A stretch of 64,000 bases of DNA from Desulfosudaceae bacterium (GCA_963674745.2 CAXXDV010000001.1:1568001-1632000), one strand, 5' to 3'. Numbered from the stretch's first letter, positions 29,888-47,004 are shown. Numbers and translations are program-made. The notes: a model not told the origin generated them from the sequence alone.

Positions 29888-32443
29888 ATGAAACGTATAA
29901 ATGCAGTTCTATTAATTGTTTTATGGGTGGTCTTTCTTTCACCCGGTCTTACCGCAGCCGGAACAGGTGAAGAAGATATTATCCCGACTGTTAAATCAAG
30001 CACCCCGGTTAACCCGGATTTATTTAAGAGCGTGGTGCCCGACTACGCTCGAGCCGTCGGTGATGTGTTGACGGTTTCAATCGATTCCAGCGGGTTCCCG
30101 GTCATTCTGTTGACGGTCACGCTTCAGAGTTCAACCGGAGACCCCATCAGCAATTTGATGATCGATGACTTTCAGGTGTCCGAACAGTCTGACCAGGAAA
30201 GCGCACCGACCGTTGAAGCCATTGATTCAGTAAATGAAACCGTTGAAAGCAGCGGCGCTTCACTGGGCTTGTTGTTCGACCTCAGCGGCAGCATGCTGTT
30301 AAATGGACGTGTCGACATGGCCAGGCAGGATGCCTTGTGCTTGTTAGATCTAATGGGATCAAATGATCGTGTCATGCTGATGTCGTTTTCCGGACCTGGT
30401 TCAGCGATGGAAATTCTGCCCCCCGGCCCGTTTACCCGGGATGCGGATGGAAACGGCCGGTATGACATTATCGAAGCGGTGAACAGCCTGTCGACGACAA
30501 AAGGCTTCAGCACAGCTGTTTACGATGCCGTGGGCATGGCAATCAGCGCCATGCAGGCGGAATCTCAGCCAAAGGGCATCGTGCTGTTCTCTGACGGCCT
30601 GTCAAACAACGATAATGTCTATGACATTAATGCTGCCATTCAAATGGCAACAAACGCCGGTATTCCTGTTGCGACACTGATTTATGGGAATGAAAACCAG
30701 CAGATTGACGGCCTTGCCGCCGGAACCGGCGGGGTGGCGTTTAATGACCCGGCCTGTCAGGACATGGACGGACTCTACAATTCATATACAACCGCTACAA
30801 CCAGCACCTATACCATCACCTATACCTCCCATAATCCTGAAGAAGACGGAACCAATCGTACGGTGAACGTGACTTATGACGGCGCTACGGGTACGGCGAC
30901 TTATGCGGTCTCCGGAACAACGCCGGTTGAGCCGGGCCAGTGCACCGAAAATTGTGGTGGTGGAACGGGCTGTTTTGTGCAAACCATGGGCGGTAATACG
31001 CTTTCCAGTCTTCGGGTTTTTTCGTATGTTTTGTTCTCGGCGCTGGTGGCGGGGCTGATTCTCTTTTTGCTCAGGCGATTTTCCGCCAGGCAGAACATCA
31101 CTTTTCTGCTGGTGATTTTTGTCCTGGCCCTGTCGGGCATGGCAAACAATCCGGCACAGGCCGGTTTGCGCAAAGGCGCCTTTTCCATCAGTCCCATGGC
31201 CGGTATTTATTATTTTGATGATGACCAGGAAATCGAAAAAGACCCTGTGGCCGGTTTCGGTCTTGGTTATCAGTTTGCCGATAACTGGGGCGTCGAACTT
31301 ATGTTGAACCATGGCCGGTATGATTATCATTACCTGGTGGCCGCCCAGTGCCTTTGCGAGACGGATGATGTCAGCGCCGACCTGGGAAGAATTGACTTGT
31401 TATATCATCTGTGGCCGGAAAGCGACCTGGTGCCGTATCTGGCTGTCGGCTTCGGGGGCATAAGCCTTGATTTTGACAGTTTTGATAAAGAAGACGACAT
31501 TTTTGCCGATTACGGCGGCGGTCTTCTCTACTTTTTGTCCGAGGACATCGCCTTTCGGGCTGATGTGCGGGGAATACACACCTTTGACGATTCTTACAAC
31601 AATCTGGCCGCTACGGTCGGCGTTTCTTTTCTGTTGGGTGGAAAACACAAAGCCGGTGCGCCCTGCGAAACGGCGGCAAAGCCTGTTCCGCCCACAACCC
31701 CTGTTGGAAAAGGGGCAATTGCCCCGGCCCCGGTTATGGCCGCCAGACCGGCCGACTTTCATATCCTGTTCGATTTTAACAAAACGGCGGTTAATCCAAA
31801 ATACTATAATAATTTCAAATCGGTAGCAGATTACCTGAAGGCCTATAAGCAAATTGTGTTAAGGATTGAGGGGTATGCCGACGCCATCGGTTCAGAGGCC
31901 TATAACCAGGCGCTTTCTCTGCGTCGGGCACAAAGCGTCAGCGCTTATCTGTCCACCAACTTTAATGTATCACGGTCACGAATGTACGTTGTCGGATTAG
32001 GTGAGCAGCATCCGGTTGCCGACAACAGCACCAGAGAAGGTCGGCGCCTGAACCGGCGGGCGGAATTGAATTATCTGGTTCCTGTGGCCACACCTCCGGA
32101 GGTCGGTTTTGACATCCGGTTCGGGTTTGACAAAACGGACGTCAACCCGGCCCTGGCGGGCAGTTTTGAACAGGTGGCCGAATATCTGAATAATTATAAC
32201 GAAATCGTATTGGGTATAGAAGGTAATACCGACGTCACCGGCCCCCAGTCATATAACCGCGAACTTTCCATGCGTCGGGCCTTGAGCGTCGGTAACTATC
32301 TGTCCGCAAGCTTCAATATTCCGTATTCACGGATGCAGTTTGCCGGTTTCGGCGAAAGCAGCCCCACGGCTGATAATGCGACGTTGACAGGCCGGAGGGC
32401 GAATCGCCGCGTTGATTTAAAGTGTTTTAAAGTGGCAGAATAG
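29888..32443 (+). CDS. VWA-domain / OmpA-family fusion protein (beta-barrel plus two OmpA C-terminal domains)
   Basis: MIDAS DLSGS..T..SDG; GGGTGCF plus two hydrophobic segments; barrel strands; two N..LS.RRA..V / NRR peptidoglycan-binding domains. Confidence 0.85.
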   Translation: MKRINAVLLIVLWVVFLSPGLTAAGTGEEDIIPTVKSSTPVNPDLFKSVVPDYARAVGDVLTVSIDSSGFPVILLTVTLQSSTGDPISNLMIDDFQVSEQSDQESAPTVEAIDSVNETVESSGASLGLLFDLSGSMLLNGRVDMARQDALCLLDLMGSNDRVMLMSFSGPGSAMEILPPGPFTRDADGNGRYDIIEAVNSLSTTKGFSTAVYDAVGMAISAMQAESQPKGIVLFSDGLSNNDNVYDINAAIQMATNAGIPVATLIYGNENQQIDGLAAGTGGVAFNDPACQDMDGLYNSYTTATTSTYTITYTSHNPEEDGTNRTVNVTYDGATGTATYAVSGTTPVEPGQCTENCGGGTGCFVQTMGGNTLSSLRVFSYVLFSALVAGLILFLLRRFSARQNITFLLVIFVLALSGMANNPAQAGLRKGAFSISPMAGIYYFDDDQEIEKDPVAGFGLGYQFADNWGVELMLNHGRYDYHYLVAAQCLCETDDVSADLGRIDLLYHLWPESDLVPYLAVGFGGISLDFDSFDKEDDIFADYGGGLLYFLSEDIAFRADVRGIHTFDDSYNNLAATVGVSFLLGGKHKAGAPCETAAKPVPPTTPVGKGAIAPAPVMAARPADFHILFDFNKTAVNPKYYNNFKSVADYLKAYKQIVLRIEGYADAIGSEAYNQALSLRRAQSVSAYLSTNFNVSRSRMYVVGLGEQHPVADNSTREGRRLNRRAELNYLVPVATPPEVGFDIRFGFDKTDVNPALAGSFEQVAEYLNNYNEIVLGIEGNTDVTGPQSYNRELSMRRALSVGNYLSASFNIPYSRMQFAGFGESSPTADNATLTGRRANRRVDLKCFKVAE

Positions 32444-33019: not shown

Positions 33020-34282
33020 ATGAAAAAGATATTTCTTGTGGTTCTAATGGCTGGTGTGCTGTCGGTTTCCGTTGCGGGGGCGGAAGATTTGAATGATGCC
33101 GTAACAGGCATGCTGGCGTCACATGACCGGATGGCCGCGGCTGAAGCGGATGTCTTGGCGGCCGAGAATTCCGCCAGAGTGGCGCTGGGGGGATGGTTTC
33201 CAAACATATCCCTGACCGGGGAGTACGGCGCTTCCAGAAACCATTACGAAGATACGGATATCATGCATCTGGACCCGGCCCTGTTCGAGGCCAGGCTGAC
33301 CCAGCGTCTCTGGGACTTCGGCAAAACAAACGGCGAGGTTCGTAAAGCCAAAGCCGCATATGAGCGGGCACTGGCTGCAAGAGACAATACCCGGCAGGAA
33401 TTGATTTTAGAAGGCGTAACCGCCTACCTCAAGCTCAAGCAGGCTGAAGAGCTGTTAAAGTACTCCAGAAAATCTGTGGAAAATATCAAAGAACAAACCA
33501 GCATGGAAAGCACCCGGATTTCCGCCGGTCAGGGGTACTCAACCGACGTGTTGCAGGCCAAGGCCCAGCTTCTTGGCGCCGAGGCCAGATTGAGCCGGGT
33601 GGAAGGCATGCTCCAGGGCGCCAAAAACAGGGTGCTGAACGCTTTTAAACGACCGGCCGGAGAAATTTCCGCGCTCACCATGGGTGAGTCGGTTGTCAAG
33701 CTTCTGCCGGCAACCCTGGAGGAGGCCGAGGGTGTTGCCTTAAAAGCCAATCCCAGACTCAAAGTGGCTGACGCCATTGTCCAGGAAGCCGAAGAAAACG
33801 CCAATACCCGCACGGCCGGGGCTTACTATCCCACCATCAACGGTGTGCTGGACTATAACTACAAAGATGACTACGGCGCCATCGAAGGCTGGCGAAAAGA
33901 AGGGCTGGCCAAGGTCGAAGTGAGATATGATTTTGATCTGGGCTTTACATCCGTGAACGTCTCAAAAGCGGCTGATGAAACCTATAAAGCCGCTTTGAAA
34001 GGCCGGGAAGATGTGAAACAGCAGGTCCTTGAAAACGTCCGCAATGCCTGGCAGAATGTTCTGACGGCCGACAAGAACGCCAGGCTGTTAAGAGACCAGG
34101 CCGATATCGTGGCCCAGTTTCTGGAACTGGCCCGTAAAGAACGGAAGATGGGACGGCGTTCGCTGCTTGATGTGCTGAGCGCAGAAGTCTCCCTGATCAA
34201 TGCCCGCAGCGACGCGGCCGCGGCTGAGGCCGATGTGAATGTTTATGCCTATACCCTGATGCAGGCCATGGGCAAACTTTAA
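33020..34282 (+). CDS. TolC-family outer membrane channel of a type I secretion system
   Basis: Signal peptide, LTQRLWDFG, GRRSLLDVL; AAGGAG RBS before ATG 33020. Confidence 0.93.
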   Translation: MKKIFLVVLMAGVLSVSVAGAEDLNDAVTGMLASHDRMAAAEADVLAAENSARVALGGWFPNISLTGEYGASRNHYEDTDIMHLDPALFEARLTQRLWDFGKTNGEVRKAKAAYERALAARDNTRQELILEGVTAYLKLKQAEELLKYSRKSVENIKEQTSMESTRISAGQGYSTDVLQAKAQLLGAEARLSRVEGMLQGAKNRVLNAFKRPAGEISALTMGESVVKLLPATLEEAEGVALKANPRLKVADAIVQEAEENANTRTAGAYYPTINGVLDYNYKDDYGAIEGWRKEGLAKVEVRYDFDLGFTSVNVSKAADETYKAALKGREDVKQQVLENVRNAWQNVLTADKNARLLRDQADIVAQFLELARKERKMGRRSLLDVLSAEVSLINARSDAAAAEADVNVYAYTLMQAMGKL

Positions 34283-34349
34283 TTCGAAAAAAGTGTTTTG
34301 TTAAATATATGGTTTTTGTTTTTGTAGTTTAATTTCTTGGAGGTGCCAG

Positions 34350-37300
34350 ATGGCAGAGACCCAGACTGTATTGACCCAAACCATGACAGCCGCTAAAGCA
34401 GCCTTTCTATCGTCCATGGGGCAGAATGTGCCTTCCATGGATGCCGCTGAGGCCGGTTTTAACGCGATGGAAGCATCTTTTAAGGCGATGTTCGGAGATG
34501 CTCCGGCCGATTTCGCGGAACTGAAAGCCGCGGCCATGGCCCAGTTCAATCAGGCCTTGAGCGACGGCATGTCGGCAGAAAGCGCCTTTAACAGCGCTTT
34601 GGCCAATTTCTCCACCGCCATGGCCGAGACCGATTTTGGCGGACAGACAGAGGGCGGGTCAATCACTCTTGATGAGGTCATCAGCATTTCCAGAGATATT
34701 GACGGAATGCTCGATCTGGGCGATCTGGGGCTGGACGGTGAGTTTGGCGGGTCCGGAAATGGTTATGTCGGCCATGGCGAAGACAATTCCCTTTTCGCAG
34801 GTAAAATCGGCGCCTTCGGCGGCCATCAATATGGCGGAGGCAGCGGGCAGGAGTTTGATGATCCCACTGATTACATGCTACATGGTGGTGGAGACGGTCC
34901 GGGTCCGGGTCCGGGTCCGGGTCCTGGTCCGGGTCCTGGTCCGGGAACGCCGGCCTCTTTTGCCATCCAGGCCGATGTCGCTTCTGTCCTTGAAGGCGAT
35001 TCCGGCACTACGCTTTATACATTCACGGTTACCCGGGCCGGAGATACCGGCGGCACCCATCAGGTCGACTGGGATGTGTCCGGCAGCGGCACCAATCCGG
35101 CCGACAACGCGGATTTTTCCGGTTTGCTGATGCCGTCCGGCATGCTGACTTTTGCGCCCGGCGAGACCACCAAGACCATTACCGTGGAGATTGCCGGCGA
35201 TATGATGGTTGAGAACACGGAAACCTTTACCGTAAATCTTTCAAATCCCACCGGCACCGGATCCCAGATCACCACCGCCTCGGCCCAGGGCACCATCATT
35301 AATGATGATGCCGGTGATACTGGTGACGGAGCCCTGTTTACCATTGCCGCCGACAGTCCGGTGGACCAGAAAGAGATGGATACCGGTGAGACAACCTATT
35401 ATACCTTTAATGTCAACCGGTCCGGTAATACCGACGTTGAACACACCATTGACTGGAAGGTGATCGGCAGCGGAGACCATCCGGCTGATGCCATTGACTT
35501 CGGCGGTGTGATGCCGGGCGGTGTCCTGACCTTTGCCGCCGGTGAAACCACCAAAACCATTACCGTGGAAGTGGCTGGAGACCTGGACATTGAAGACCAC
35601 GAAACTTTTGAGGTTATCATTTTCAACGCTTCCGGCGGCGCCCAGATCGGCATGCCCTTTGTGCTGGCCACGATTGTAAACAATGACAGCCCGGTTGGGA
35701 CGGACCCCTGTGCCCCCTGCACCCTGCAGGCGGTTAACATGGCCACCGCGACGACGAATATCACCCTGACCGGTGATGATTTTTGTGACTACCTGCAAGT
35801 CAACCTGACCAATACAACCGGCGGTGTCAGCGGCTATAACATCAACCTGGACGGCATGGCCTGCGGAGACACGATCATTCCCAGATTGATCGGCAGCAAT
35901 GTCTCAAACAACAGTGTTAACATTCTGGGCGGGGACAGCAGCGATACCATCAGGGTCACCATGCAGGCGTCGGACGCTTCTTCCGGTTCCTGGGGATCGG
36001 CATCGGCCGATGTCAACGGCAATATCATCAACATTGATGCCGGGGCCTGCAATGATAACGTGTCGGTCCTTTTAGGGGCATATGCCCAGGCCAGCAATAC
36101 GGGTTCGACTTCGGCCGCTGTCAGTTCCGTTACGGCCTCTGTCTATTCCAATAACGTCGTCATGCTGGGCGGCACCGGCAACGACACCCTCTCTCTGACC
36201 CTGGAGGCCGAGGCCACAGCTTATGCCAGCGCCTCATCGCCGGCTTCTTCCGCGACCGCTTCTGCTTATTCTGCCAATGCTTCCATTTACAGCAATATCG
36301 TCACCATGTCCGGCCAGGATGGCAATGACACCCTGACCGCCATGCTCAGGGCGTCGGCAAGAAGTTCCGCCATTGCCCATGCCGGCGGAACCCATGATGC
36401 TCAAGCTTCGGCTGCCTACTACTCACCCGAGGCATCTGTATACAATAACACCATCAATATGCATGGCGGCACAGGCTATGATATGCTCAGCCTAACCCTT
36501 TCAGCCGATGTTGCCGTTTACGCTTTTGCCTCTGCGGCCTTAGGCTCCGCTTCAATCACCGAAGCCGTTGAAGAAAATGCCTATGCTTATGTGTACAGCA
36601 ACCATGTTTCCATGACCGGCGGTGATGGAAATGACACCCTGTCCGCCAGGCTGGCCGCGAATCTGCATGTAACCGCCTCCGCCATTGGTTACAGTGATGC
36701 TTTAGTCGACACAGTTGCGTCCGGTTATCTTACAGCCATTGTTTCCAGCAACACCGTCACCATGGACGGCGGGGCCGGCAACGACACCCTGAGCCTGAAT
36801 GCCACGGCTGATATGTCAATTTACGCACTCGCGTCAGCAGAAACAGGCTCTGCTGCCGTTTATTACGTCTGTTATTCATATGTTTATAACTCTGTTGATA
36901 GCAATACCTTCAACCTGCTCGGCGGTGATGGAGACGACTCACTCTCCGCCCTTTTGGCGGCTAACGGCAGGTTAACGGCATCGGCCATTGGCAGCACAAG
37001 CGCGTCGTTATATTCTATCGCTTATTATACCCTTTCCGCGTATGTCGGCAGCAACGATGTTTTCATGACCGGCGGTGATGGAAATGACACCCTGAGCCTG
37101 ACCGCCGCAGCTGACTGGTCGATATACGGACTTGCTTCGGCTGATTCTGGCAATGCCTACATTTATTATTTTCTTTACTATTCTGTCTTAGCCACTGTCG
37201 AGAGCAACGACTTTACCATGACCGGCGGCGCCGGAAACGACTCGCTGTCCGCTTTACTGGCGGCCGATATCCAGGTGACGGCATCGCTTCTTGCCGGTGA

Positions 37301-40300
37301 TGGATATGCGACCATGAGCTACGTCAATTATTCCTACGCCACCGCCTCCGTTCACAGCAACTATGTCAGTATGGACGGCGGCGCCGGCATGGACACTCTG
37401 ACGCTGGGTCTTATGGCCGAAAATAACATCTACGTATATGCCTCGGCACAGAGCGATTCAGCCGAAGCCAGTATATACTACTATGTCCAGGCTGACATCT
37501 CGGGAAATACCATTCACATGTTCGGCGGCGGTAGCCACGACGAACTGGATCTTCAGCTGATGGCCAATGCCCAGGCCCGGGCAACCGCGATCGCTAACGG
37601 CCCCGGTGGAACCAGCTACGGCGCGGATGCTGTCGCCTATACGGTTACCGCTTCCATAAACCATAACACCATCACCATGACCGGCGGGACCGATGCCGCC
37701 AACGACACCCTGACCGCCATGCTGGCAGCTTCTGCCAAAGCCACGGCTATTGCCGTCGGCGGAACCGGAACATCGGGTGCGAGTGCATCCGCATACTATG
37801 CCTACGCCTATGTTTCCTACAATGATATTAGCATGGACGCCGGCCCGGGCGATGACACCCTGTCCCTCACCCTTTTCGCCGATGCCCAGGTTTATGCCGA
37901 CGCCTCGGCGCCGTCAGGGGATGCGTCTGCTTATGGTTACGATGCGACTGCCTATGTCACAAACAACACCATTGACATGTACGGCGGCGCGGGCAATGAT
38001 TCACTCTCGGCCCTGCTGACCGCTTCTGCCAGAATCACGGCTTTTGCCGAAGCCGGAGATTCAGGGGATGCGACCGCTTCTGCCTATTCGGCTGAGGCCA
38101 ATATTACCGGCAATGACATTTTTATGGGTGGCGCCTCCGGTACCGACACCCTGTCCCTGGGCCTTTTGGCCCGGGCCGCGCTCTATGCATCGGCTGTGGC
38201 AACATCGTCCGGAGATGCCTTTGCCTCTAATTATGATGTCGACGCTTCAGTATATTCAAATACCATCACCATGGTTGGTGGCGGCGGGCATGACACCATC
38301 AATCTGACCATAACGGCTGATGTGTCCATGTACGCCCGTGCGGCTGCCACGTCTGGTCATGCCTCAATCGACTTAGCATCCTCCACGATCTATGCTTATG
38401 TCGCCAGCAACAATATTTCCATGCTCGGCAGCGGCGGTGACGATAATCTGTTCGCCCTGATGAGCGCCCATATTAACGGTACGGCCTCCGTTCTGGCCGG
38501 TGGTACCAGTGGTGTCAGCGGCTCGGCGACCATGAGCTATGACCCGTATTATTATATTTATGCCAGCAATGTCAGTAACACCGTTTTCATGGGCGGCGGG
38601 ACCGGTAACGACACCCTCGGCCTGACCATGGCGGCCCGCATGGAATTTGACTTCCTGGCTTCAGCAGCATCCTATTCCGCCAGCATCAATGAACCCTTTT
38701 ACTCCACGGCCAGCGCCAATGTCTCCAACAACACCGTTACCATGACCGGCGGATCCGGAAACGATACCCTGACGGCACGGTTGACCGCCAGCTTTGCGGC
38801 CGCTTTTACGGCCCGGGCCGGCGGCACCGGTTCAGCAAGCATTGATTCTGCCCCGTACTATTATATTTACGCTGATAATAACGATAACATTATTTTCATG
38901 TACGGTAGCGGCGGCGATGATACCCTGGGACTGACCATGGCGGCCAACATGACGTTCTCCTTCCTGGCTTCCGCAGAATCCAGTGATGCCACCATATCTT
39001 CCGCGCCTTACTCCACGGTCAGCGCCAATGTTTACAGCAACGATATATCCATGACCGGCGGCACGGGCGCGGACCATCTGACAGCCCGGCTGAGCGCGCA
39101 CGGCGAGTTTGACTATGCGGCCATTGCCGACAATGGCGGTGATGTCTACATTTATTATGCTCCCTACTCTTATGTCACGGCGTCGGTATACAGCAACGAT
39201 ATTTTTATGGGCGGGGGCACGGGAAATGATGTCCTTACCCTGACCATGGCGGCGGACATGGAACTTGACTATTTAGCTTCCGCACCGATGGGCACAGCCT
39301 CCATATACTCGGGCCTCTATTACACTGCCTACGCCAATGTGTTCAGCAATACCGTAGCCATGACCGGCGGCGACGGCGTTGACTCCATTAACGTTCTGCT
39401 GGCCGCTTCAATCAGGGTTGACGAGTCCGTCATTGCCGGTAACGACGCCAGTATATATTATGGTTGTTATTACGCGCCTTACGCGGAGGTTTACAGCAAT
39501 GATGTTGACATGTTCGGCAACGCCGGCAACGACTCCCTGAACCTGACGCTGGCGGCCCAGGCCACGGTCCATGTCTTTGCAAACGCAGGATCATCCGCCA
39601 TTGCTTCAAATTATTATGGCGGCTCCGCGCTGGTAAGCAGTAATACAATTTCCATGACAGGTGGGACCGGCAACGACAGCCTTCATGCTTTACTGACAGC
39701 CGTCGACAACATTACCGGCACAGCCTACGGCGATACATCCGCTAATGCATATGCTTATGATGGGCAAGCCTTTATCAGCAATAACACGCTTAATATGTTT
39801 GGCAGCAGTGGCCAAGATCTTTTGTCTGCCACGTTTGCGGCCTGGGGGTCAGCCGATGCCTTGGCCAGAGCAGTAACCGTTTCAGCCAGTGCCTATGCCT
39901 CGGCCTCGGTTTCTGCCACTATACAAAGCAACAACCTTCTCATGTCAGGCGGTTCGGGCAACGATACGCTTTCGGCTGCGTTTTCCGCAGGAGCCAATGC
40001 CTCGGCAACTGCGGTGGCACCGGGCTTCCTCGGCAGCGCCAGCGCTGATGCCTCTGCTTACGCCTATGTAAGCAACAATAGCATCACCATGATCGGCGGT
40101 AGTGGAACAGGCCACCTGTCCCTGACCTTGAAGGCGACGGCATCGGCCTTTGCATGGGCGAATTCCCCGGGTTCCGAAAGTGCAAGTGCTTCTGTCGATG
40201 CCAGAGTCAATAACAATGTCGTCGATATGAACGGCGGATCAGGCAGTGACACCCTGTCGTTGAACATGACCGCCTCGGCCTTTGCCTCAGCCTCGGCCTC

Positions 40301-40898
40301 TGTCACCTCCGTATCGGCAACGGCCAGTATTACCGGAAACACCGTGCGGATGTCCGGTGGCAGCGGCACAGACCACATGAGCCTGGCGGTTAATATCAGC
40401 GCCACACAGTCGGCATTTTCCGGAAACGTATTCACCCTGACCGGCGGGTCCGGTAACGACCACATCAACATTGCCTTTGACGTGGCCTCCGGTCCGACCC
40501 TCACCAACAATACCGCCGTGGTCTGGGGTGGGGTTGGCAGCGATACCATCTCCATCGCGGCCGATACTTCGGATGCCATGTTTATCTTCAAATATGCGGG
40601 TACGAATGAGCTCGGAGACAACATCAATGGATTGACGGCCGGCCACAGCATTGGCTTCTCGTTCAATAATACCGCATTTAACGGCACGGCTACAGTTATC
40701 CCGGGTGTCCTGAACACGGATTGTTTTGTCCTCGGCACCGCATCTGCAGCTGCTGATGCCAATGATTTCTGGATCTATAACTCGGCTACCAACGCCCTTT
40801 ATTATGACGCCGACGCCAATGGCGCCGGGGCGGCCGTCCAGGTGGCTCAGTTTGATGCCAATGTGGGCCTGACAGCAGGACATATATCGTTCTACTAA
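34350..40898 (+). CDS. 2182-aa RTX-like T1SS passenger (two Calx-beta domains plus about 35 spaced GGxGxD repeats)
   Basis: LTFAPGETTKTITV Calx-beta motif twice; GGxGNDxL motifs; C-terminal IYN..T.ALYYDADANG secretion-signal-like segment; no Sec signal peptide. Confidence 0.9.
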   Translation: MAETQTVLTQTMTAAKAAFLSSMGQNVPSMDAAEAGFNAMEASFKAMFGDAPADFAELKAAAMAQFNQALSDGMSAESAFNSALANFSTAMAETDFGGQTEGGSITLDEVISISRDIDGMLDLGDLGLDGEFGGSGNGYVGHGEDNSLFAGKIGAFGGHQYGGGSGQEFDDPTDYMLHGGGDGPGPGPGPGPGPGPGPGTPASFAIQADVASVLEGDSGTTLYTFTVTRAGDTGGTHQVDWDVSGSGTNPADNADFSGLLMPSGMLTFAPGETTKTITVEIAGDMMVENTETFTVNLSNPTGTGSQITTASAQGTIINDDAGDTGDGALFTIAADSPVDQKEMDTGETTYYTFNVNRSGNTDVEHTIDWKVIGSGDHPADAIDFGGVMPGGVLTFAAGETTKTITVEVAGDLDIEDHETFEVIIFNASGGAQIGMPFVLATIVNNDSPVGTDPCAPCTLQAVNMATATTNITLTGDDFCDYLQVNLTNTTGGVSGYNINLDGMACGDTIIPRLIGSNVSNNSVNILGGDSSDTIRVTMQASDASSGSWGSASADVNGNIINIDAGACNDNVSVLLGAYAQASNTGSTSAAVSSVTASVYSNNVVMLGGTGNDTLSLTLEAEATAYASASSPASSATASAYSANASIYSNIVTMSGQDGNDTLTAMLRASARSSAIAHAGGTHDAQASAAYYSPEASVYNNTINMHGGTGYDMLSLTLSADVAVYAFASAALGSASITEAVEENAYAYVYSNHVSMTGGDGNDTLSARLAANLHVTASAIGYSDALVDTVASGYLTAIVSSNTVTMDGGAGNDTLSLNATADMSIYALASAETGSAAVYYVCYSYVYNSVDSNTFNLLGGDGDDSLSALLAANGRLTASAIGSTSASLYSIAYYTLSAYVGSNDVFMTGGDGNDTLSLTAAADWSIYGLASADSGNAYIYYFLYYSVLATVESNDFTMTGGAGNDSLSALLAADIQVTASLLAGDGYATMSYVNYSYATASVHSNYVSMDGGAGMDTLTLGLMAENNIYVYASAQSDSAEASIYYYVQADISGNTIHMFGGGSHDELDLQLMANAQARATAIANGPGGTSYGADAVAYTVTASINHNTITMTGGTDAANDTLTAMLAASAKATAIAVGGTGTSGASASAYYAYAYVSYNDISMDAGPGDDTLSLTLFADAQVYADASAPSGDASAYGYDATAYVTNNTIDMYGGAGNDSLSALLTASARITAFAEAGDSGDATASAYSAEANITGNDIFMGGASGTDTLSLGLLARAALYASAVATSSGDAFASNYDVDASVYSNTITMVGGGGHDTINLTITADVSMYARAAATSGHASIDLASSTIYAYVASNNISMLGSGGDDNLFALMSAHINGTASVLAGGTSGVSGSATMSYDPYYYIYASNVSNTVFMGGGTGNDTLGLTMAARMEFDFLASAASYSASINEPFYSTASANVSNNTVTMTGGSGNDTLTARLTASFAAAFTARAGGTGSASIDSAPYYYIYADNNDNIIFMYGSGGDDTLGLTMAANMTFSFLASAESSDATISSAPYSTVSANVYSNDISMTGGTGADHLTARLSAHGEFDYAAIADNGGDVYIYYAPYSYVTASVYSNDIFMGGGTGNDVLTLTMAADMELDYLASAPMGTASIYSGLYYTAYANVFSNTVAMTGGDGVDSINVLLAASIRVDESVIAGNDASIYYGCYYAPYAEVYSNDVDMFGNAGNDSLNLTLAAQATVHVFANAGSSAIASNYYGGSALVSSNTISMTGGTGNDSLHALLTAVDNITGTAYGDTSANAYAYDGQAFISNNTLNMFGSSGQDLLSATFAAWGSADALARAVTVSASAYASASVSATIQSNNLLMSGGSGNDTLSAAFSAGANASATAVAPGFLGSASADASAYAYVSNNSITMIGGSGTGHLSLTLKATASAFAWANSPGSESASASVDARVNNNVVDMNGGSGSDTLSLNMTASAFASASASVTSVSATASITGNTVRMSGGSGTDHMSLAVNISATQSAFSGNVFTLTGGSGNDHINIAFDVASGPTLTNNTAVVWGGVGSDTISIAADTSDAMFIFKYAGTNELGDNINGLTAGHSIGFSFNNTAFNGTATVIPGVLNTDCFVLGTASAAADANDFWIYNSATNALYYDADANGAGAAVQVAQFDANVGLTAGHISFY
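34896..34943 (+). repeat. (GGTCCG/T)x8 hexamer repeat encoding a (Gly-Pro)8 linker
   Basis: Direct reading of the sequence. Confidence 0.9.
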
Positions 40899-40915
40899 AC
40901 AGCAACAGGGTTTAT

Positions 40916-40951
40916 AAAAAAAGGGAGCCGGAAGTCCGGTTCCCTTTTTTT
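40916..40951 (+). terminator. Intrinsic terminator after the RTX-like gene
   Basis: aaaaaaagggagccgg-aagt-ccggttccc followed by a T run. Confidence 0.85.
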
Positions 40952-41046
40952 GGTGATTAGAATAAGACTTGAATTTTACCATCGGAACGATTACATTAAA
41001 AAGTCTTTAAAAAACAGGTAAAAACAGAAATATAGCAGGAGTTACT

Positions 41047-42834
41047 ATGGCGACAATGGAACAGAATCTGGCACTGGCCATGCAGCACATCAATGTCAAC
41101 CGCTTAAAAGAAGCCGAAGATCTCTGCGGGCCGTTATTGCAAAGCCATCCTCTGGAGCCGCAGGTGCTTCACGCCGCCGGGTTGATCAAGTACAAAAAAA
41201 TGGATTACAAGGGGGCCATCGAGCAGTTGTCCAAGGCCGTCCAGATTGACAAGAAAAATCCGCTATACTTCGGCAACCTGGGCGAGGCCTATCGCCGCGA
41301 CCGGCAGTTTGACAAGGCACTGGAAGCGTTTGAAGAGGCCATTGCCATGATGCCGGAGTTTCTCATGGGTCACCTGGGCATCGCCAACACCCTGCGGGAC
41401 CAGAGTAAGTTCAAACAAGCAACCTCCCGGTTCCGGCTGGCCCTGGCCATCAACCCCACCTTCGCACCCGCCTATCATTACCTGGGCCTGACGTTCGTGG
41501 ACCAGGAGCGTTTAAAAGAAGCCATTCCCCTGCTGCGCAAGGCTATTGCCCTGCGGCCGGGATACATCGAGGCCCAGCTCAGCCTGGCCAACACCCTGGA
41601 ACGGGATGGTCAGTCCGAAGAGGCCCTGGAGAGGTACCGCAGCATTCTGGAAAAACTGCCCAATCATGTGGGGATTATTAATAATATTGGAAATATCCTG
41701 AAAAACATGGGGCACATCGATGAAGCCATTATCCACTTTGAAAAAGCCCTGGAACTTGATCCGGACCATGTCTCGGCTTATTACAACCTTTCCCGCGCCC
41801 GGGTGGGTTCCAACCCGGAAGAATTGGCGCGCATGGAGAAAATGGCCACCGATGATCGCCTCAACCAGGAACAGCAATGCAGCATGCATTTCTCTTTAGG
41901 CAAACTGTATGACGATCTGGGGAAATACGATAAGGCCTTTTTCCATTTCAAACGCGGTAATGAGATGGACACCCGGGAAAAACCGTTTGACCCCAAACTG
42001 CACAGCCTGGCCATAGACCGCATGATGGCCACGTTCAACAAGGAGTTTTTTTCGGGTCGCCGGGGGTTCGGCAGCGAATCCGACCTGCCGGTGTTTGTTC
42101 TGGGCATGCCCCGTTCCGGGACCACACTGGTAGAGCAGACCCTGGCCAGCCATCCGGAGGTTTACGGGGCCGGTGAATTGAATACGATCGGCCAGATTAT
42201 CGGCGCCCTGCCGAACCTTCAGGGCCGGCTGGCCGGATATCCTGAATGCGCCACCTTGATCGACGCTATCAGCGCCTGTCAGCTTGGTGAAGAATATGTG
42301 AATCATTTAAGGTCCGTCGGCGGTAATGCCAAACGGGTGACCGATAAGATGCCGGGAAATTTTATCAATTTGGGATTTATCTCTTTGCTCCTGCCCAACG
42401 CCAAAATCGTTCATTGTCACCGTGAGCCCCTGGACACCTGCCTGTCCTGCTTCTTTCAACATTTTGCCATGGTCATGCCCTTTTCCCGCGACCTGACCTT
42501 TCTCGGCAAGTATTACCATGATTACAAGCGCATCATGGATCACTGGCGCCAGGTACTGCCGCAGCAGATTTTTCATGTTCGCTATGAAGATATGGTTGCC
42601 GACCATGAGGGCATGAGCCGTAAACTGATCGAATTTATCGGCCTGGAATGGGATGAGTCCTGCCTGAATTTTCACAAGACAGAGCGGACGGTCAAAACCG
42701 CCAGTAACTGGCAGGTGAGGCAGCCGGTTTATAAAAGCTCCATGGCCCGCTGGAAAAATTACGACGAGTTTATCACTCCCTTGAGAGAGGCATTAGGCGA
42801 CGCCCAGTCGGAAGAGTCGTTAAAAAAAGATTAA
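41047..42834 (+). CDS. TPR-repeat sulfotransferase
   Basis: Multiple TPRs; GMPRSGTTL 5'-PSB loop, DKMP, REPLDTCLS 3'-PB motif. Confidence 0.93.
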   Translation: MATMEQNLALAMQHINVNRLKEAEDLCGPLLQSHPLEPQVLHAAGLIKYKKMDYKGAIEQLSKAVQIDKKNPLYFGNLGEAYRRDRQFDKALEAFEEAIAMMPEFLMGHLGIANTLRDQSKFKQATSRFRLALAINPTFAPAYHYLGLTFVDQERLKEAIPLLRKAIALRPGYIEAQLSLANTLERDGQSEEALERYRSILEKLPNHVGIINNIGNILKNMGHIDEAIIHFEKALELDPDHVSAYYNLSRARVGSNPEELARMEKMATDDRLNQEQQCSMHFSLGKLYDDLGKYDKAFFHFKRGNEMDTREKPFDPKLHSLAIDRMMATFNKEFFSGRRGFGSESDLPVFVLGMPRSGTTLVEQTLASHPEVYGAGELNTIGQIIGALPNLQGRLAGYPECATLIDAISACQLGEEYVNHLRSVGGNAKRVTDKMPGNFINLGFISLLLPNAKIVHCHREPLDTCLSCFFQHFAMVMPFSRDLTFLGKYYHDYKRIMDHWRQVLPQQIFHVRYEDMVADHEGMSRKLIEFIGLEWDESCLNFHKTERTVKTASNWQVRQPVYKSSMARWKNYDEFITPLREALGDAQSEESLKKD

Positions 42835-42886
42835 ATCAACTCGTGAAATAGCCGGGTTATTATTTTTAGGATAGCGTTCTTATACG

Positions 42887-44569
42887 ATGCGTGAGTTAAT
42901 CAACCGCCTGAAATCAGCCCCGAGATTATCTCTGGAACTGCTGGTTTCTTCTTTTTTCATCAGCCTGCTGGCGCTTTCATCCCCCATGTTTGTCATGCTG
43001 GTGCTTAACCGTTATGTGATGCACGGTGTTGACAGTACCCTGTATACCTTGATAACAGGCGTTCTCATCGCGATCCTGATGGAGTTCGGGTTCCGGCAGG
43101 TCCGGTTAAAGCTGGCGATGGGGATCAGCATGGGCCCGGATGCCAGGATTGCGGGCGGGGCTTTTGCTTCTCTGACCAGTGCCCGCATGAGTGCCGTCGA
43201 AAAAATGCCACCAGGCTTGCGGCGGGAAGTGATGGGTGGGTTAACGGCCGTGCAACATGCCTACAGCCCGGAAAACATATCCACGGTTATGGATATGTTT
43301 TTTGCTTTTATGTATATTGTCGTGCTTTTCCTGATGGATCCGACCATCGGCGCAATTGTAACCGGTTTTATCTTCGTCATGTTTGTTTTCGCGCTGATCA
43401 GTCACAACCTGCTGGGTGGGCCCATGCAGGAACTCAACCAGGCGGCTGTTCGCAACAATGCCCTGGTGGGATCGGCTATCATGGCGACGGATTCAATTCG
43501 GAGTTTTAACGCGGCCAGGTTTCTCAAGGAACTGTGGGGAAAACAGCAGGCCCTGACCAATCGCCTGAGGAAGAAACTGACCACCCGGCAGGGACTTTCC
43601 CAGTCAATCACCATGAGCATCAACTCCCTGATGACAGTGGCTGTTATTGGCATGGGGGCGAAGCTTGTGGTCGCCGGCAACATGTCGGTCGGCGTTATGA
43701 TCGGCTTTAATATTCTGGCCGCCCGGGCATTGGCGCCCATCAGCCGTTTTGCCATGCTTGGCGCGGTGTTTACCAAGGCCCAGCAGGCGCTGGATCTTCT
43801 GGACGGGTTTTCCAACCTGCCTAGGGAATCAACCCGGGGCAGTGCCCTGCGAAATTACAGCGGCCGTCTGGAATTAAAGGATCTGGCTTTCTGGTTTCAG
43901 GGGTCGTCTGGTCCGCTGTTCGAATCTGTTTCCCTGACCCTTTCACCGGGCCAGGTCCTGTTGATTACCGGCGATAACGGCACCGGCAAAACGACCCTGG
44001 CCCGGGTGCTGCTGGGGCTTCTGGACTCGACCCGGGGGCAGGTGTTTGTGGACGGTCTCGATCTTCGCCAGGTCCTCCCGGAATGGTGGCGCCAACAGGT
44101 TATCTATCTTCCCCAGGAGCCGGTTTTTTTTGACGGTACCATTCGAGAAAATTTAGTTACCCTTAAACCGGATCTTGATGACCAAACACTGCAGCAGATC
44201 GTCAAACGGTCCGGTCTGACCCGTTTTCTGGATGAAAGTCCGGAGGGCCTTGCAACCAAGCTGGTTAACGGTGGGATGAATATCGCGGTCGGTATCCGTC
44301 GACGACTGGCCCTGGCCCGGGCGCTGGTATCCGACGGCATGCTGGTCGTGTTTGACGAACCGGTCGGCGGGCTGGACAATGATGGCATAATTGTTGTGTC
44401 AAATGTCATGCGGGAGCTTCTTCAGAACGGGCGGGCGCTGGTGGTGTGTTCTCATAACCCCAACATTCTTCAGGCCAACGGGTTTCGACTGGATTTAAAC
44501 AAAAAGCCGATTCCTGAAGTGAGCCGGTTTACAGCGGAAAAGCCCGCCATTCCGGAAAAGACGCCATGA
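42887..44569 (+). CDS. Type I secretion ABC transporter (no C39 domain)
   Basis: TM domain, GDNGTGKT Walker A, YLPQEP, VFDEP; divergent signature IAVGIRRR. Confidence 0.9.
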   Translation: MRELINRLKSAPRLSLELLVSSFFISLLALSSPMFVMLVLNRYVMHGVDSTLYTLITGVLIAILMEFGFRQVRLKLAMGISMGPDARIAGGAFASLTSARMSAVEKMPPGLRREVMGGLTAVQHAYSPENISTVMDMFFAFMYIVVLFLMDPTIGAIVTGFIFVMFVFALISHNLLGGPMQELNQAAVRNNALVGSAIMATDSIRSFNAARFLKELWGKQQALTNRLRKKLTTRQGLSQSITMSINSLMTVAVIGMGAKLVVAGNMSVGVMIGFNILAARALAPISRFAMLGAVFTKAQQALDLLDGFSNLPRESTRGSALRNYSGRLELKDLAFWFQGSSGPLFESVSLTLSPGQVLLITGDNGTGKTTLARVLLGLLDSTRGQVFVDGLDLRQVLPEWWRQQVIYLPQEPVFFDGTIRENLVTLKPDLDDQTLQQIVKRSGLTRFLDESPEGLATKLVNGGMNIAVGIRRRLALARALVSDGMLVVFDEPVGGLDNDGIIVVSNVMRELLQNGRALVVCSHNPNILQANGFRLDLNKKPIPEVSRFTAEKPAIPEKTP

Positions 44570-45963
44570 ACGAAGAGAAAACAGAACCTCGGGTGAACCA
44601 GGCCGAGGGTGATAATAACGTCGGCAAAGAGCTGGTCAAAACGGAAAACATTCCGGCCGAAGAATCGCGACCGGATTATGAATCTGTTGTTGAAGACGCT
44701 GTTGGCCAGTTCCCTCACTATTTTTTGGCCCTTTTTGTTTCAATGTGCCTGGCTTTTTTCTTCTGGGCAACGTTCAGCAAACTGGACATTTTCAGTATGG
44801 CCCAGGGAGAAGTGGTGCCTTCTTCCAAAGTAAAAAGCGTTCAGCACCTTGAGGGTGGAATTGTTCAGCGGATTCTTGTCCGGGAAGGGCAGCGGGTTAA
44901 AAAGGATGAAGCGCTGGTTGAGCTGCAGGCCACGGCCAGCGACGCTGATGTCCGGGAACTGAATGTGCGCATCACCTCCCTGAGAGTCGAAGGAGAACGG
45001 CTGGCGGCGGAGCTGGCCAACCGGGATGAGGTGAAGTTCAGTCCGGAGTTGGTGCAGGATCATCCGGATCTTGTCAGCCAGGCCCAGGAATTTTTTCATG
45101 CCCGTCGCCAGCGATTAAAATTGGATCAGGAGCGGCAAACCCAGCTGGTTAATCAGAGACGGCAGGAAATTAATGAAATTGAGGCCCGGTTGCGAAATCA
45201 CAAAAGCCGGCTGTTGCTGCTGGAAGAACAGATCGGCATCAGCGAAGAACTGCTCAAGGATGATTTGACCAACCGTTACACCCACCTGAATTTACTGAAA
45301 GAACAGAACGCCTTAAAAAGTGCCATTGAAGAAAACGAATCAGCCCTGAATCAGGCCGCGACCGCCTTGAAAGTGGAGCAGGTGCGATTGAACAGCATCC
45401 TTTCGGCTTACAATGAAGATGTTCAGAAGAGTCTGGATGAAAATCGCAGGAATTATGACGGTTACACTGAGCGCTTGCGAAAATTTAACGACAGCCTGGA
45501 TAGAACGGTCTTGCGGGCGCCGGTGGACGGGATTGTCAAAACACTTTACCTGGTGACCGAGGGCGGTGTCATTCGTCCCGGTGAAACTGTTCTGGATATC
45601 GTCCCGGAAGACGATCTGCTGATAGTCGAAGCACGGCTGCCGACCCAGGATATCGGCTATATTCATCTCGGCCAGAAAGCTCAGATTAAGTTGGCTTCAG
45701 CGGATGCCAGGCAATTCGGCACTATTCACGGTGAGGTGGTCAATATCAGTCCGGACACGCTGATTTCAGATAGGGGCCAACCTTATTACAAGGTCCGTAT
45801 CGCCACTGACCAGGCCTGTTTTGAGGGCAGAGGAGGGGCTGAATATTGCCTTTATCCGGGCATGATTCTGCAGGTGAGTATTCAGACCGGTAAGCGGACT
45901 GTACTGGACTACCTGATTGCGCCGTACTTTTCTTCCCTGGAAGATGCCTTTACCGAACGATAA
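44566..45963 (+). CDS. HlyD-family T1SS membrane fusion protein
   Basis: VQHLEGGIV, RAPVDGIV, TGKRTVLDYL; overlaps the ABC gene (ATGA). Confidence 0.94.
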   Translation: MNEEKTEPRVNQAEGDNNVGKELVKTENIPAEESRPDYESVVEDAVGQFPHYFLALFVSMCLAFFFWATFSKLDIFSMAQGEVVPSSKVKSVQHLEGGIVQRILVREGQRVKKDEALVELQATASDADVRELNVRITSLRVEGERLAAELANRDEVKFSPELVQDHPDLVSQAQEFFHARRQRLKLDQERQTQLVNQRRQEINEIEARLRNHKSRLLLLEEQIGISEELLKDDLTNRYTHLNLLKEQNALKSAIEENESALNQAATALKVEQVRLNSILSAYNEDVQKSLDENRRNYDGYTERLRKFNDSLDRTVLRAPVDGIVKTLYLVTEGGVIRPGETVLDIVPEDDLLIVEARLPTQDIGYIHLGQKAQIKLASADARQFGTIHGEVVNISPDTLISDRGQPYYKVRIATDQACFEGRGGAEYCLYPGMILQVSIQTGKRTVLDYLIAPYFSSLEDAFTER

Positions 45964-45968
45964 CTTGC

Positions 45969-47000
45969 TTAGACGATGTCCGGTTTTTCGGTGGAATCAG
46001 CCTGTTGCGGCCGTTCAGCTTTTCCCTGCCCCAGTTTTTTAAATTCATCCTTGAAGCTGCCGTCAATTTTATGTGCCCAGGCCGAGGCAAAGGGGGGGGC
46101 CAGGGCGGGGTTGAACACAAAATGGATAACATTCCAGGCCAGCCCGAATATGGTCTTTCTGCGGCCGCAGATCCTGAAGTTTCTAAAACCCATATCATAA
46201 ATGGTTTTCAGCTCCTGACGCCTTAAAACATTGGGGCGGACATGGGCCGGGTTTTTTTGGGAGGAAATAATGCCGAATTGGCCGGCACAATGTTTCTGCT
46301 TGATCTGTTTCAGCTCTTCCCCTAACTGCGGGGATCGCTGGATGTTAAACCGGGAGATGGCCATCAAATGACGTTTGCGAGTGGGGCACTTGTAAGCGCA
46401 TTCGTCATTAACAATAATCTCAACCTTGTCGCGGTCAAGCTGGTCAAGAAGCTCCAGATCAAACACATGATCAGGGTAAACAACCACCCGGTCAAAACGG
46501 TCCTGCATCTTTTTGTACCAGTTGACATCACCTTGAGGATTTTCAATGAGGGCTTTTTCATAGGAGCAGATTTGCTTTAAGCCCGGTTTTTTGTCCCTGA
46601 TGTAATTAGACAACAAATCGCTGGCAACAATTACACCGTTTAAGCCGCTGCTTTCATCCAGCTGCTCTAAAAGCGTGTTGGCTGTCGAATCGGCCAGATG
46701 CTGCTTTTCAAGAGCGATGTTGGTGAATGTCAGGTACACGGAGATATCATGCTTGTTCAAAACATCGGAAAAATTTTTTGCGTCCGTGTTGGGAACATTG
46801 GCATTCAGATAGCCGCCGTTCCAGGCCAGATCCGGACAGCCGTGAACAGCGCCGATAACAGGAAGAACATCATGGCTGTTCATGGTGTTGACGAAAATGC
46901 GCAGAAAAAGCCGGTAATTATATAACCCGGAGACGTTCCATTTTACTTCCGGCCAGTCCGGGTGAATTATACTCTCTTCACGTTCCGTTTTTAACAACAT
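45969..47000 (-). CDS. Hypothetical protein, distantly peptidase-U32-like; paralog of 47005-48021
   Basis: WNGG, YLTFTN, NGVIV, ECAYKCP.R..H, GFRNFRICGR. Confidence 0.7.
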   Translation of the reverse strand: MLLKTEREESIIHPDWPEVKWNVSGLYNYRLFLRIFVNTMNSHDVLPVIGAVHGCPDLAWNGGYLNANVPNTDAKNFSDVLNKHDISVYLTFTNIALEKQHLADSTANTLLEQLDESSGLNGVIVASDLLSNYIRDKKPGLKQICSYEKALIENPQGDVNWYKKMQDRFDRVVVYPDHVFDLELLDQLDRDKVEIIVNDECAYKCPTRKRHLMAISRFNIQRSPQLGEELKQIKQKHCAGQFGIISSQKNPAHVRPNVLRRQELKTIYDMGFRNFRICGRRKTIFGLAWNVIHFVFNPALAPPFASAWAHKIDGSFKDEFKKLGQGKAERPQQADSTEKPDIV

Positions 47001-47004
47001 AAAA

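Follow-up and report, generated by a model that had tools for sequence, protein, structure and literature searches.

A TPR-sulfotransferase encoded directly after a giant protein with a predicted beta-solenoid in a type I secretion locus of a Desulfosudaceae bacterium

A 64,000-nucleotide stretch of DNA from a Desulfosudaceae bacterium (GCA_963674745.2 CAXXDV010000001.1:1568001-1632000), referred to here as the window, contains a type I secretion system (T1SS) locus at positions 33020..45963. Five genes run in the same direction on the plus strand between 33.0 and 46.0 kb: tolC, a gene for a giant exported protein (the cargo), a gene for a tetratricopeptide repeat (TPR) protein fused to a sulfotransferase (the enzyme), an ABC exporter gene, and hlyD. 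A terminator follows the cargo gene. An initial annotation of the window had named these six elements, calling the cargo the passenger, and all of them were found in that order and on that strand. The interpretation tentatively preferred here is that the enzyme is dedicated to tailoring the cargo in the cytoplasm, sulfating the unfolded chain ahead of type I export, with the acceptor residue left unspecified. The HlyD encoded here is the only one of 17 TIGR01843 matches in the 5.55-Mb genome to score above the cut-off, and the locus is therefore taken to be the organism's single canonical T1SS. The studied genome is labeled G000. Labels such as G002, G003, G027, and G049 denote other genomes of the same order, and G002 is a sister species in the same genus.

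The AlphaFold2 model of the enzyme, built on an alignment of 121 relatives, has a predicted local distance difference test score (pLDDT) of 96.1 and a predicted template modeling score (pTM) of 0.92. It is composed of a TPR superhelix from residue 1 to ~336 and an alpha/beta domain at residues 343-595 that resembles tyrosylprotein sulfotransferases (TPST). Structural comparison was run with VIA-align against 48,161 PDB representatives. The best row for the TPR half is the TPR domain of O-GlcNAc transferase (OGT; 1w3b, Z 23.2), and phmmer also matches this half to OGT with an E value of 5.8e-52. The catalytic half aligns with human TPST1 (5wri) at Z 22.5 and a root-mean-square deviation (rmsd) of 2.7 Å over 240 residues, with tick TPST at Z 22.5, and with TPST2 at Z 22.2. 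An olefin-synthase domain, 4gox, comes next among the sulfotransferases at Z 18.5. Foldseek with the full enzyme model returned TPR proteins only, and the catalytic domain surfaced only in VIA-align. A profile of 10 sulfotransferase domains gives the same ranking, with human TPST1 (E 2.4e-21), tick TPST (8e-20), and TPST2 (6e-17) scoring better than the polyketide sulfotransferases (1e-14) and the SULT1 enzymes (1e-9). In sequence and in predicted fold, the catalytic half is closest to the animal TPSTs. The N-terminus of the enzyme, MATMEQNLALAMQH, has no hydrophobic leader or signal peptide, and the enzyme is predicted to be cytoplasmic.

All 121 full-length relatives share G353, R356, E377, K434, R459, and S553 without exception. 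The GMPRSGTT sequence (the 5'-phosphosulfate-binding motif, 5'-PSB, which holds R356), the R459...S467 segment (the 3'-phosphate-binding motif, 3'-PB), and E377 show little or no variation in the same 121 sequences. When aligned to TPST1, E377 falls on the second Glu of 'GEE', the Glu base position, and K434 falls on the Lys of 'NKDP'. The enzyme and the animal TPSTs thus have in common the 5'-PSB Arg, the Glu base position, the Lys, and the 3'-PB Arg/Ser. In the TPSTs these roles belong to residues R78, E99, K158, and S285. The protein had been identified from the window alone as a TPR-sulfotransferase, and that identity stands on the PF13469 match, the OGT-like TPR front half, and the conserved catalytic positions and positions for binding 3'-phosphoadenosine 5'-phosphosulfate (PAPS).

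Adenosine 5'-phosphosulfate (APS) kinase, the cysC product, had been marked as worth checking, and a fused gene of the PAPS-synthase type is present in the genome. It lies on contig C3, is 581 aa in length, and joins PUA_2, ATP-sulfurylase, and APS-kinase domains. Judged by its domains, its product could supply PAPS. The genome also contains ~15 PF13469 stretches. Three further PF13469 matches lie within ~15 kb at G000:C3:542-556 kb (L006, L007, and L009), and may form a separate sulfation cluster.

The position of the enzyme gene is conserved in related loci. A match covering the sulfotransferase domain was found in 9 of 60 relatives. The gene order in G002 is identical to that of the locus in the window. 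In G027, from another family, TolC is followed by a 1278-aa cargo with Big_9, cadherin, and repeats-in-toxin (RTX) domains, the enzyme 5 nucleotides later, ABC, HlyD, and a family 4 glycosyltransferase (GT4). In G049, from a third family, the order is SapC, TolC, ABC, HlyD, a 2039-aa cadherin cargo, and then the enzyme. The enzyme gene is directly 3' of the cargo gene in all four T1SS loci (G000, G002, G027, and G049). G003 has two tandem enzymes after an open reading frame (ORF) truncated by the contig end, and the last 63 residues of this ORF resemble the tail of the G027 cargo (E 4e-5). Between G000 and G027, HlyD is 47% identical, ABC 42%, and the enzyme 33%, while the cargoes are unrelated. 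The linked cargoes outside this genus (G027 and G049) are of two further, unrelated types. Because the order recurs in G002, G027, and G049, the cargo-then-enzyme arrangement is more than chance.

A FastTree phylogeny of 109 sulfotransferase domains divides the T1SS-linked enzymes among three positions, and each G003 copy is sister to one of them. The approximately unbiased (AU) test rejected a clade of the four T1SS-linked enzymes (p 0.0008). A clade of these four with the two G003 enzymes was not rejected (p 0.31), but this group was defined after the tree had been seen, so the choice between a single origin and several is not settled.

Genes of the SapC family (PF07277) are present in two enzyme loci, at L193:6158-6895 (G049) and L035:7717-8409 (G003). 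The G049 copy is directly before the tolC-ABC-hlyD-cargo-enzyme series. SapC, a protein without a known role, takes its name from the S-layer T1SS locus of Campylobacter fetus.

The cargo contains (N-terminal to C-terminal) an Ala-rich region, a Gly/Pro linker, two Calx-beta domains, ~30 solenoid repeats, and a tail ending in HISFY. It is 43% identical to the G002 cargo along its length, and the Calx-beta pair is present in G002 as well. The repeat unit has the form SN.V.M.GG.GNDTLSL...ASA...YY..A.VY, and each unit is built around a GGxGxD motif. An AlphaFold2 model of residues 595-999 (405 residues, eight units) has a pLDDT of 95.8 and is all-beta. Its best VIA-align rows are beta-helix or solenoid proteins with Z values of 10-14. 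These include curli CsgA (Z 14.0), SufB (Z 13.9), the two-partner secretion (TPS) domain of EtpA (Z 13.8, rmsd 2.9 Å over 203 residues), and the secretion domains of HMW1 and FHA (Z 10.7-11.1). Foldseek gave no match in the PDB to the repeat model at E <= 0.001, and no Pfam family matched the repeat. Among 8,000 candidates scored from a 5.8-billion-sequence collection, three proteins were homologous to the repeat, and within the order it was matched in 2 of 401 genomes, both of this genus. The cargo repeat, as modeled, may be an undescribed type of solenoid repeat. In composition the cargo is acidic and Cys-poor, with ~30 GGxGxD motifs. Pfam HemolysinCabind does not match this cargo but is listed for the relatives P0003 and P0005.

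The repeat region of the cargo recurs in shorter form at G000:C2:999-2324. This second copy lies in an 839-aa open frame at the very start of the contig and is 36-45% identical to the repeats of the window. It could be a paralogous cargo or the result of an assembly break inside a repeat gene.

The cargo contains 113 Tyr residues (5.2%), concentrated in residues 600-1800, and the G002 orthologue contains 8.5% Tyr. The strings YYVCYSYVY, YIYYFLYY, and PYYYIY, quoted in the initial annotation, are present in the translation. From this richness the annotation had gone on to propose Tyr as the target of sulfation. In its full form, this explanation holds that the enzyme is a true tyrosylprotein sulfotransferase and that the dense repeat Tyr clusters are its sites. 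The TPSTs are indeed its nearest solved relatives, and three of the four linked cargoes have a C-terminal Tyr. The clusters, however, occupy one fixed segment of the ~50-aa repeat, in predicted solenoid strands, where a sulfate on core-facing residues would be expected to hinder folding. Acidic neighbors are depleted rather than enriched. Tyr is preceded by Asp/Glu 4 times in this cargo (10.7 +/- 3.1 in shuffled sequences) and 10 times in the G002 cargo (16 +/- 3.6). Tyr residues with at least two acidic neighbors and no Lys/Arg number 14 in this cargo, compared with 24 +/- 4.3 in shuffles. By sequence, the Tyr context of the cargo is unlike TPST or RaxST sites. The linked cargoes of G049 and G027 are also Tyr-poor (1.4% and 2.9%), so Tyr richness appears to be a trait of this genus's cargo and not of enzyme-linked cargoes. 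On these grounds the step from a Tyr-rich cargo to Tyr as the target was not upheld. The dense clusters are probably structural features of the predicted solenoid and not sulfation sites, and their sulfation by a true tyrosylprotein sulfotransferase is improbable.

Tyr as an acceptor in general stays possible, since Tyr in acidic context is enriched over shuffles in the other two linked cargoes (11 versus 4.6 +/- 1.9 in G049, and 23 versus 12.3 +/- 2.9 in G027). In the cargo of the window, the sole classical-looking (most TPST-like) site is Y175 (EFDDPTDYMLHGGGDG), in the disordered linker. An acidic Tyr is also present in the linker of G002 (ELEDYW) and of the relative P0004 (GEEYDIFGPGG). 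The three residues fall in different alignment columns, which weakens the case for a positionally conserved linker Tyr and leaves Y175 as a lead only. If Tyr is the acceptor, acidic Tyr residues of the Gly-rich linker such as Y175 would be better candidates than the clusters.

An acceptor other than protein was also considered. Under this explanation co-regulation alone would account for the place of the enzyme in the operon, and its substrate would be a cargo glycan, an exopolysaccharide, a lipid, or a small molecule. The GT4 glycosyltransferase directly after hlyD in G027 is consistent with it, as are the frequent location of relatives beside TPR-fused family 41 glycosyltransferases (TPR-GT41), TonB receptors, and SapC, and the breadth of the PF13469 family, including the many stretches in this genome. 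The glycan had been raised as an alternative from the start, and apart from the G027 GT4 gene it is weakened, as no glycosyltransferase family was matched among the window ORFs tested (22.8-57.4 kb). The TPSTs lead the sulfotransferase-domain profile search, and its rows at E <= 0.001 name no sulfotransferase of the heparan-sulfate or Nod-factor type. OGT and FlmG, the TPR-plus-enzyme fusions of known function covered here, act on proteins. A non-protein acceptor is considered unlikely.

The enzyme belongs to a very large family. At E <= 0.001 it numbers 57,839 cluster representatives, and the stricter threshold of E <= 1e-30 leaves 18,503, many of which carry more than one sulfotransferase stretch in a single protein. 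The neighborhoods of 161 loci were surveyed, 76 of them from genome contigs, 8 from relatives, and 77 from metagenome contigs. A single-protein query found no relative among the metagenome contigs, and the 77 loci were obtained with an alignment query. The ORF filter called no enzyme ORF in a few loci (for example, L049, L056, L124, L141, L152, and L162). Neighbors were counted among 695 ORFs within 3 ORFs of the enzyme gene and 747 ORFs further out. TonB receptors were found in 13 loci (14 ORFs near, 0 further out), TPR-GT41 in 9 loci (11 near, 5 further out), autotransporters in 7 loci (7 near, 0 further out), and TPS exoproteins in 4 loci (5 near, 0 further out). HlyD was found in 3 loci, those of G002, G027, and G049 (3 near, 0 further out), and ABC in 4 loci (4 near, 8 further out). 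Pfam confirms autotransporter beta-domains in five loci, G004, L051, L079 (Pseudomonas putida), L109, and L111 (Paraburkholderia), and a TPS domain (TpsA) in L059. In the P. putida locus L079, the homologue lies three ORFs (~1.6 kb) upstream of the autotransporter gene. Taken together, the family tends to be located near genes that encode exported envelope proteins, but the majority of its members lack such a neighbor.

Given these neighbors, the enzyme might modify exported envelope proteins generally (outer-membrane receptors, porins, and adhesins) and not be dedicated to the cargo. According to the part of PMC4892823 available, RaxST sulfates Omp1X as well, which fits such a role. The enzyme gene is nevertheless directly after the cargo gene in four of four T1SS cases, which points to a local partner, and a general modifier is rated as having a low probability. 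A wider proposal concerns a very large, uncharacterized family of cytoplasmic enzymes shaped like OGT, in which TPR are joined to a TPST-like domain. Its members would sulfate surface and secreted proteins that are still unfolded, ahead of export, with T1SS adhesins, autotransporters, TPS exoproteins, and perhaps TonB receptors as targets. This generalization is speculative and is put forward with some doubt.

Other features of the family were observed in the survey. TPR-GT41 (OGT-like) genes repeatedly adjoin TPR-sulfotransferase genes, sometimes with several of each (L043, L053, L119, L121, L159, and others). Such groups may be islands of TPR-guided modifying enzymes. Some relatives carry two to six sulfotransferase stretches per chain; P0007, for example, is 2492 aa in length with four stretches. 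Giants with many TPR blocks are encoded at L038 (G044) and L039 (G025) and are 1865 and 3077 aa in length.

Several observations weigh against a dedicated tailoring enzyme, in addition to the depletion of acidic residues before the cargo Tyr described above. An HlyD match at E <= 1e-60 is present in 20 of 401 genomes of the order, G000 included. Eleven of the other genomes have an HlyD with an identity of 40% or more. Two of these eleven (G002 and G027) carry the enzyme alongside, and in two more (G109 and G054) the contig stops at the ABC gene or short of it. In the remaining seven (G126, G170, G124, G357, G337, G296, and G208), no enzyme was found on the upstream side within ~15 kb, and no giant cargo gene was recognized there. 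A more distant T1SS with a 3593-aa neighbor, in G155, is likewise without the enzyme. The enzyme therefore appears to travel with certain cargo genes and is not a fixed part of the exporter lineage. Within the locus, a strong terminator lies between the cargo and enzyme genes, so co-transcription is not assured, and among the linked loci the two genes are tightly coupled only in G027, by the 5-nucleotide gap. In the wider survey, most loci have no secretion gene nearby, and none of the 153 loci outside the order's relatives has an ABC/HlyD pair beside the enzyme. Since TonB receptors and TPR-GT41 are the most frequent neighbors, other substrates may exist for the family. For the co-occurrence check proposed in the initial annotation, the cargo-then-enzyme order recurs in three other genomes, and the enzyme is missing from the ~15 kb on the upstream side in seven of eleven genomes with close HlyD homologues.

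The terminator and the missing enzymes would also fit an adjacency without functional meaning, or a protein that is only a non-catalytic TPR holder for the cargo. Against this, three or four families share the cargo-then-enzyme order, their enzymes being 33-35% identical, and the PAPS-binding and catalytic positions do not vary among the relatives. There is little probability that this is the correct explanation.

In four of the seven genomes without the enzyme, from a neighboring family (L197-L200, in G170, G124, G357, and G337), the orthologous tolC-ABC-hlyD genes are preceded not by a cargo gene but by a gene for a ~990-aa fusion of a periplasmic-binding domain and a mechanosensitive channel. 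The Pfam assignment covers two of these fusions (G170 and G357).

The preferred mechanism, a dedicated enzyme acting before export, would proceed as follows. The genome's single canonical T1SS would export the giant Calx-beta and beta-solenoid protein, with its tailoring enzyme encoded in the same operon. The N-terminal TPR superhelix would hold the extended, still-unfolded cargo in the low-calcium cytoplasm, and the C-terminal PAPS-dependent TPST-type domain would O-sulfate some of its hydroxyl side chains. The ABC/HlyD/TolC machine would thread the modified chain out afterwards. We infer that the cargo is the substrate, that modification comes before export, and which residue would be modified. 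Sulfation of the cargo ahead of export is plausible. A complex prediction of the enzyme with cargo residues 1-215 scored 0.00 in both runs, a result that counts neither for nor against binding. The initial annotation had also proposed sulfation in the cytoplasm of a TPR-bound chain ahead of export. That part is retained, given a TPST-like enzyme predicted to be cytoplasmic, an OGT-like TPR half, a PAPS gene, and a conserved place after the cargo gene, while the Tyr clusters are set aside as the target.

The coordinates of the locus are collected in Table 1.

Table 1. Genes, cargo regions, and terminator of the T1SS locus, in positions of the window.
Feature	Position	Strand	Basis or remark
tolC (TolC-family outer-membrane channel)	33020..34282	+	Pfam OEP PF02321, E 9.7e-56
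Cargo gene, 2182 aa	34350..40898	+	Translation; Calx-beta E 4.1e-18; repeat table
Gly/Pro-rich linker with Y175 (EFDDPTDYMLHGGGDG, then PG repeats)	34848..34949	+	Candidate site only
Two Calx-beta domains	34959..35669	+	Pfam PF03160, two stretches, best residues 204-320
~30 repeats of ~50 aa, predicted beta-solenoid	35985..40619 (residues ~546-2090)	+	Repeat table, AlphaFold2
Intrinsic terminator: A7, GGGAGCCGG, loop AAGT, CCGGTTCCC, T7	40916..40951	+	9-bp G+C stem
TPR-sulfotransferase gene, 595 aa	41047..42834	+	PF13469 E 7.5e-48 and many TPR families
ABC exporter gene, 560 aa	42887..44569	+	Pfam ABC_membrane PF00664, ABC_tran PF00005
hlyD (HlyD-family T1SS adaptor)	44566..45963	+	TIGR01843, 397.6 bits (cut-off 208.65), E 6.8e-119

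The tolC ORF begins with an ATG at 33020, followed by the signal-peptide-like N-terminal sequence MKKIFLVVLMAGVLSVSVAGA. Its product scores 199 bits against TIGR01844, under the cut-off of 225. The best NCBIfam matches of the ABC exporter are the T1SS permease/ATPase families TIGR03375, TIGR01842, and TIGR01846, with E values from 4.5e-99 to 6.5e-73, all under their cut-offs. The hlyD and ABC genes share a 4-base overlap.

The terminator begins eighteen bases past the stop codon of the cargo gene. The intergenic RNA between the cargo and enzyme genes has a folding energy of -34.3 kcal/mol (z -3.7), and none of 200 shuffles was as good. A simple consensus terminator scan did not list this hairpin. 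An equivalent hairpin is present 3' of the cargo gene in the sister species G002.

Just upstream of tolC, positions 29888-32443 of the plus strand encode an 851-aa protein that combines a von Willebrand factor type A (VWA) domain with an outer-membrane beta-barrel and two OmpA-family stretches. Two minus-strand ORFs of 343 and 338 aa (45969-48021) come immediately after hlyD. They have only a weak U32 match (E 4e-4), and a PHROGs search of both returned no match. G002 has ORFs of 345 and 369 aa in the same place and relative orientation, which are likened to these by size only.

Within the literature covered, the RaxX peptide of Xanthomonas is the only well-documented case of bacterial protein sulfation. 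If the enzyme does tailor an adhesin before export, it would place a new, strongly charged modification on bacterial surfaces, with bearing on adhesion, calcium binding, the biofilm matrix, and mimicry of sulfated host molecules. If the proposal extends to the OGT-shaped family, protein O-sulfation would be common on bacterial surfaces instead of a curiosity of Xanthomonas, and the family, with its tens of thousands of members, would gain a function. Sulfation in this sulfate-reducing bacterium would then decorate a new kind of Tyr-laddered beta-solenoid. The locus is a compact test case, with one T1SS, one cargo, one enzyme, and one PAPS-synthase gene.

The literature search turned up neither experiments on nor a detailed description of a TPR-sulfotransferase in an adhesin T1SS operon, with subscription journals mostly outside its coverage. 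For a TPR-sulfotransferase in a T1SS or autotransporter locus, the search returned, in the portions of text it reached, only the Rax papers, PMC2938197, and an aside in a 2022 review, which mentions such gene neighborhoods in one line as unpublished observations (PMC9372746). In the excerpts of Iyer et al. 2010, sulfation of collagen-like and tail-collar proteins is proposed in other neighborhoods (PMC2938197).

The closest known system in logic is raxX-raxSTAB of Xanthomonas, which is described here from excerpts of the cited papers. RaxST acts in the cytoplasm ahead of export (PMC9372746, PMC6637879). RaxX is made as a 60-residue precursor, and its double-glycine leader is cut off by RaxB (PMC6637879). 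RaxST homologues are about the length of RaxST itself, and Liu et al. 2019 found raxST homologues in diverse bacteria, mostly not beside raxA or raxB (PMC6637879). In both loci, genes for an ABC exporter and an HlyD-type adaptor accompany that of a cytoplasmic TPST-like, PAPS-dependent enzyme (in the present locus as predicted), and the logic of modification followed by export is common to the two. They differ in four respects. The gene before the enzyme here encodes a 2182-aa cargo, and there is no small precursor with a double-glycine leader. The 560-aa ABC protein has no N-terminal peptidase domain (C39 or C39-like) listed in the Pfam search. The enzyme is 595 aa in length with ~340 residues of fused TPR, as compared with a RaxST known here by description and not by sequence. 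Finally, tolC is inside the operon here, whereas in Xanthomonas it is a housekeeping gene (PMC6637879). The likeness to Rax drawn in the initial annotation thus holds for sulfation followed by ABC-dependent export through a membrane fusion protein and does not extend to membership in the Rax system. Judged against the literature covered, the locus would extend the RaxST type of coupling to a phylum and a cargo fold for which it has not been described before.

Among solved structures, TPST1 and TPST2 (PDB 5wri and 3ap1/3ap3) and tick TPST (8w5z) are the best profile and fold matches of the catalytic domain. The identity to the animal enzymes is ~20%. The animal TPSTs are membrane-anchored in the Golgi lumen (PMC9372746, in the excerpt available), whereas the enzyme here is TPR-fused and predicted to be soluble and cytoplasmic.

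Dedicated cytoplasmic tailoring enzymes are encoded beside the gene of the exported giant protein in other systems. The HlyC/CyaC acyltransferases of RTX toxin operons and the TibC/Aah/HMW1C glycosyltransferases of type V adhesins are examples. Their chemistry is different and their folds are unrelated to that of the enzyme described here.

FlmG of Caulobacter is 596 aa in length. Its TPR at residues 1-313 binds flagellins, and its C-terminal glycosyltransferase modifies them in the cytoplasm before export (PMC7591256, in the part available). The catalytic domain of the present enzyme is instead a sulfotransferase, and the export route is a T1SS and not the flagellar one. Like FlmG and OGT, the enzyme joins an N-terminal TPR and a C-terminal transferase in one chain, and its size is nearly that of FlmG. 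By analogy and by its model, the layout of the enzyme parallels OGT and, most closely, FlmG, with the TPR predicted to bind the substrate.

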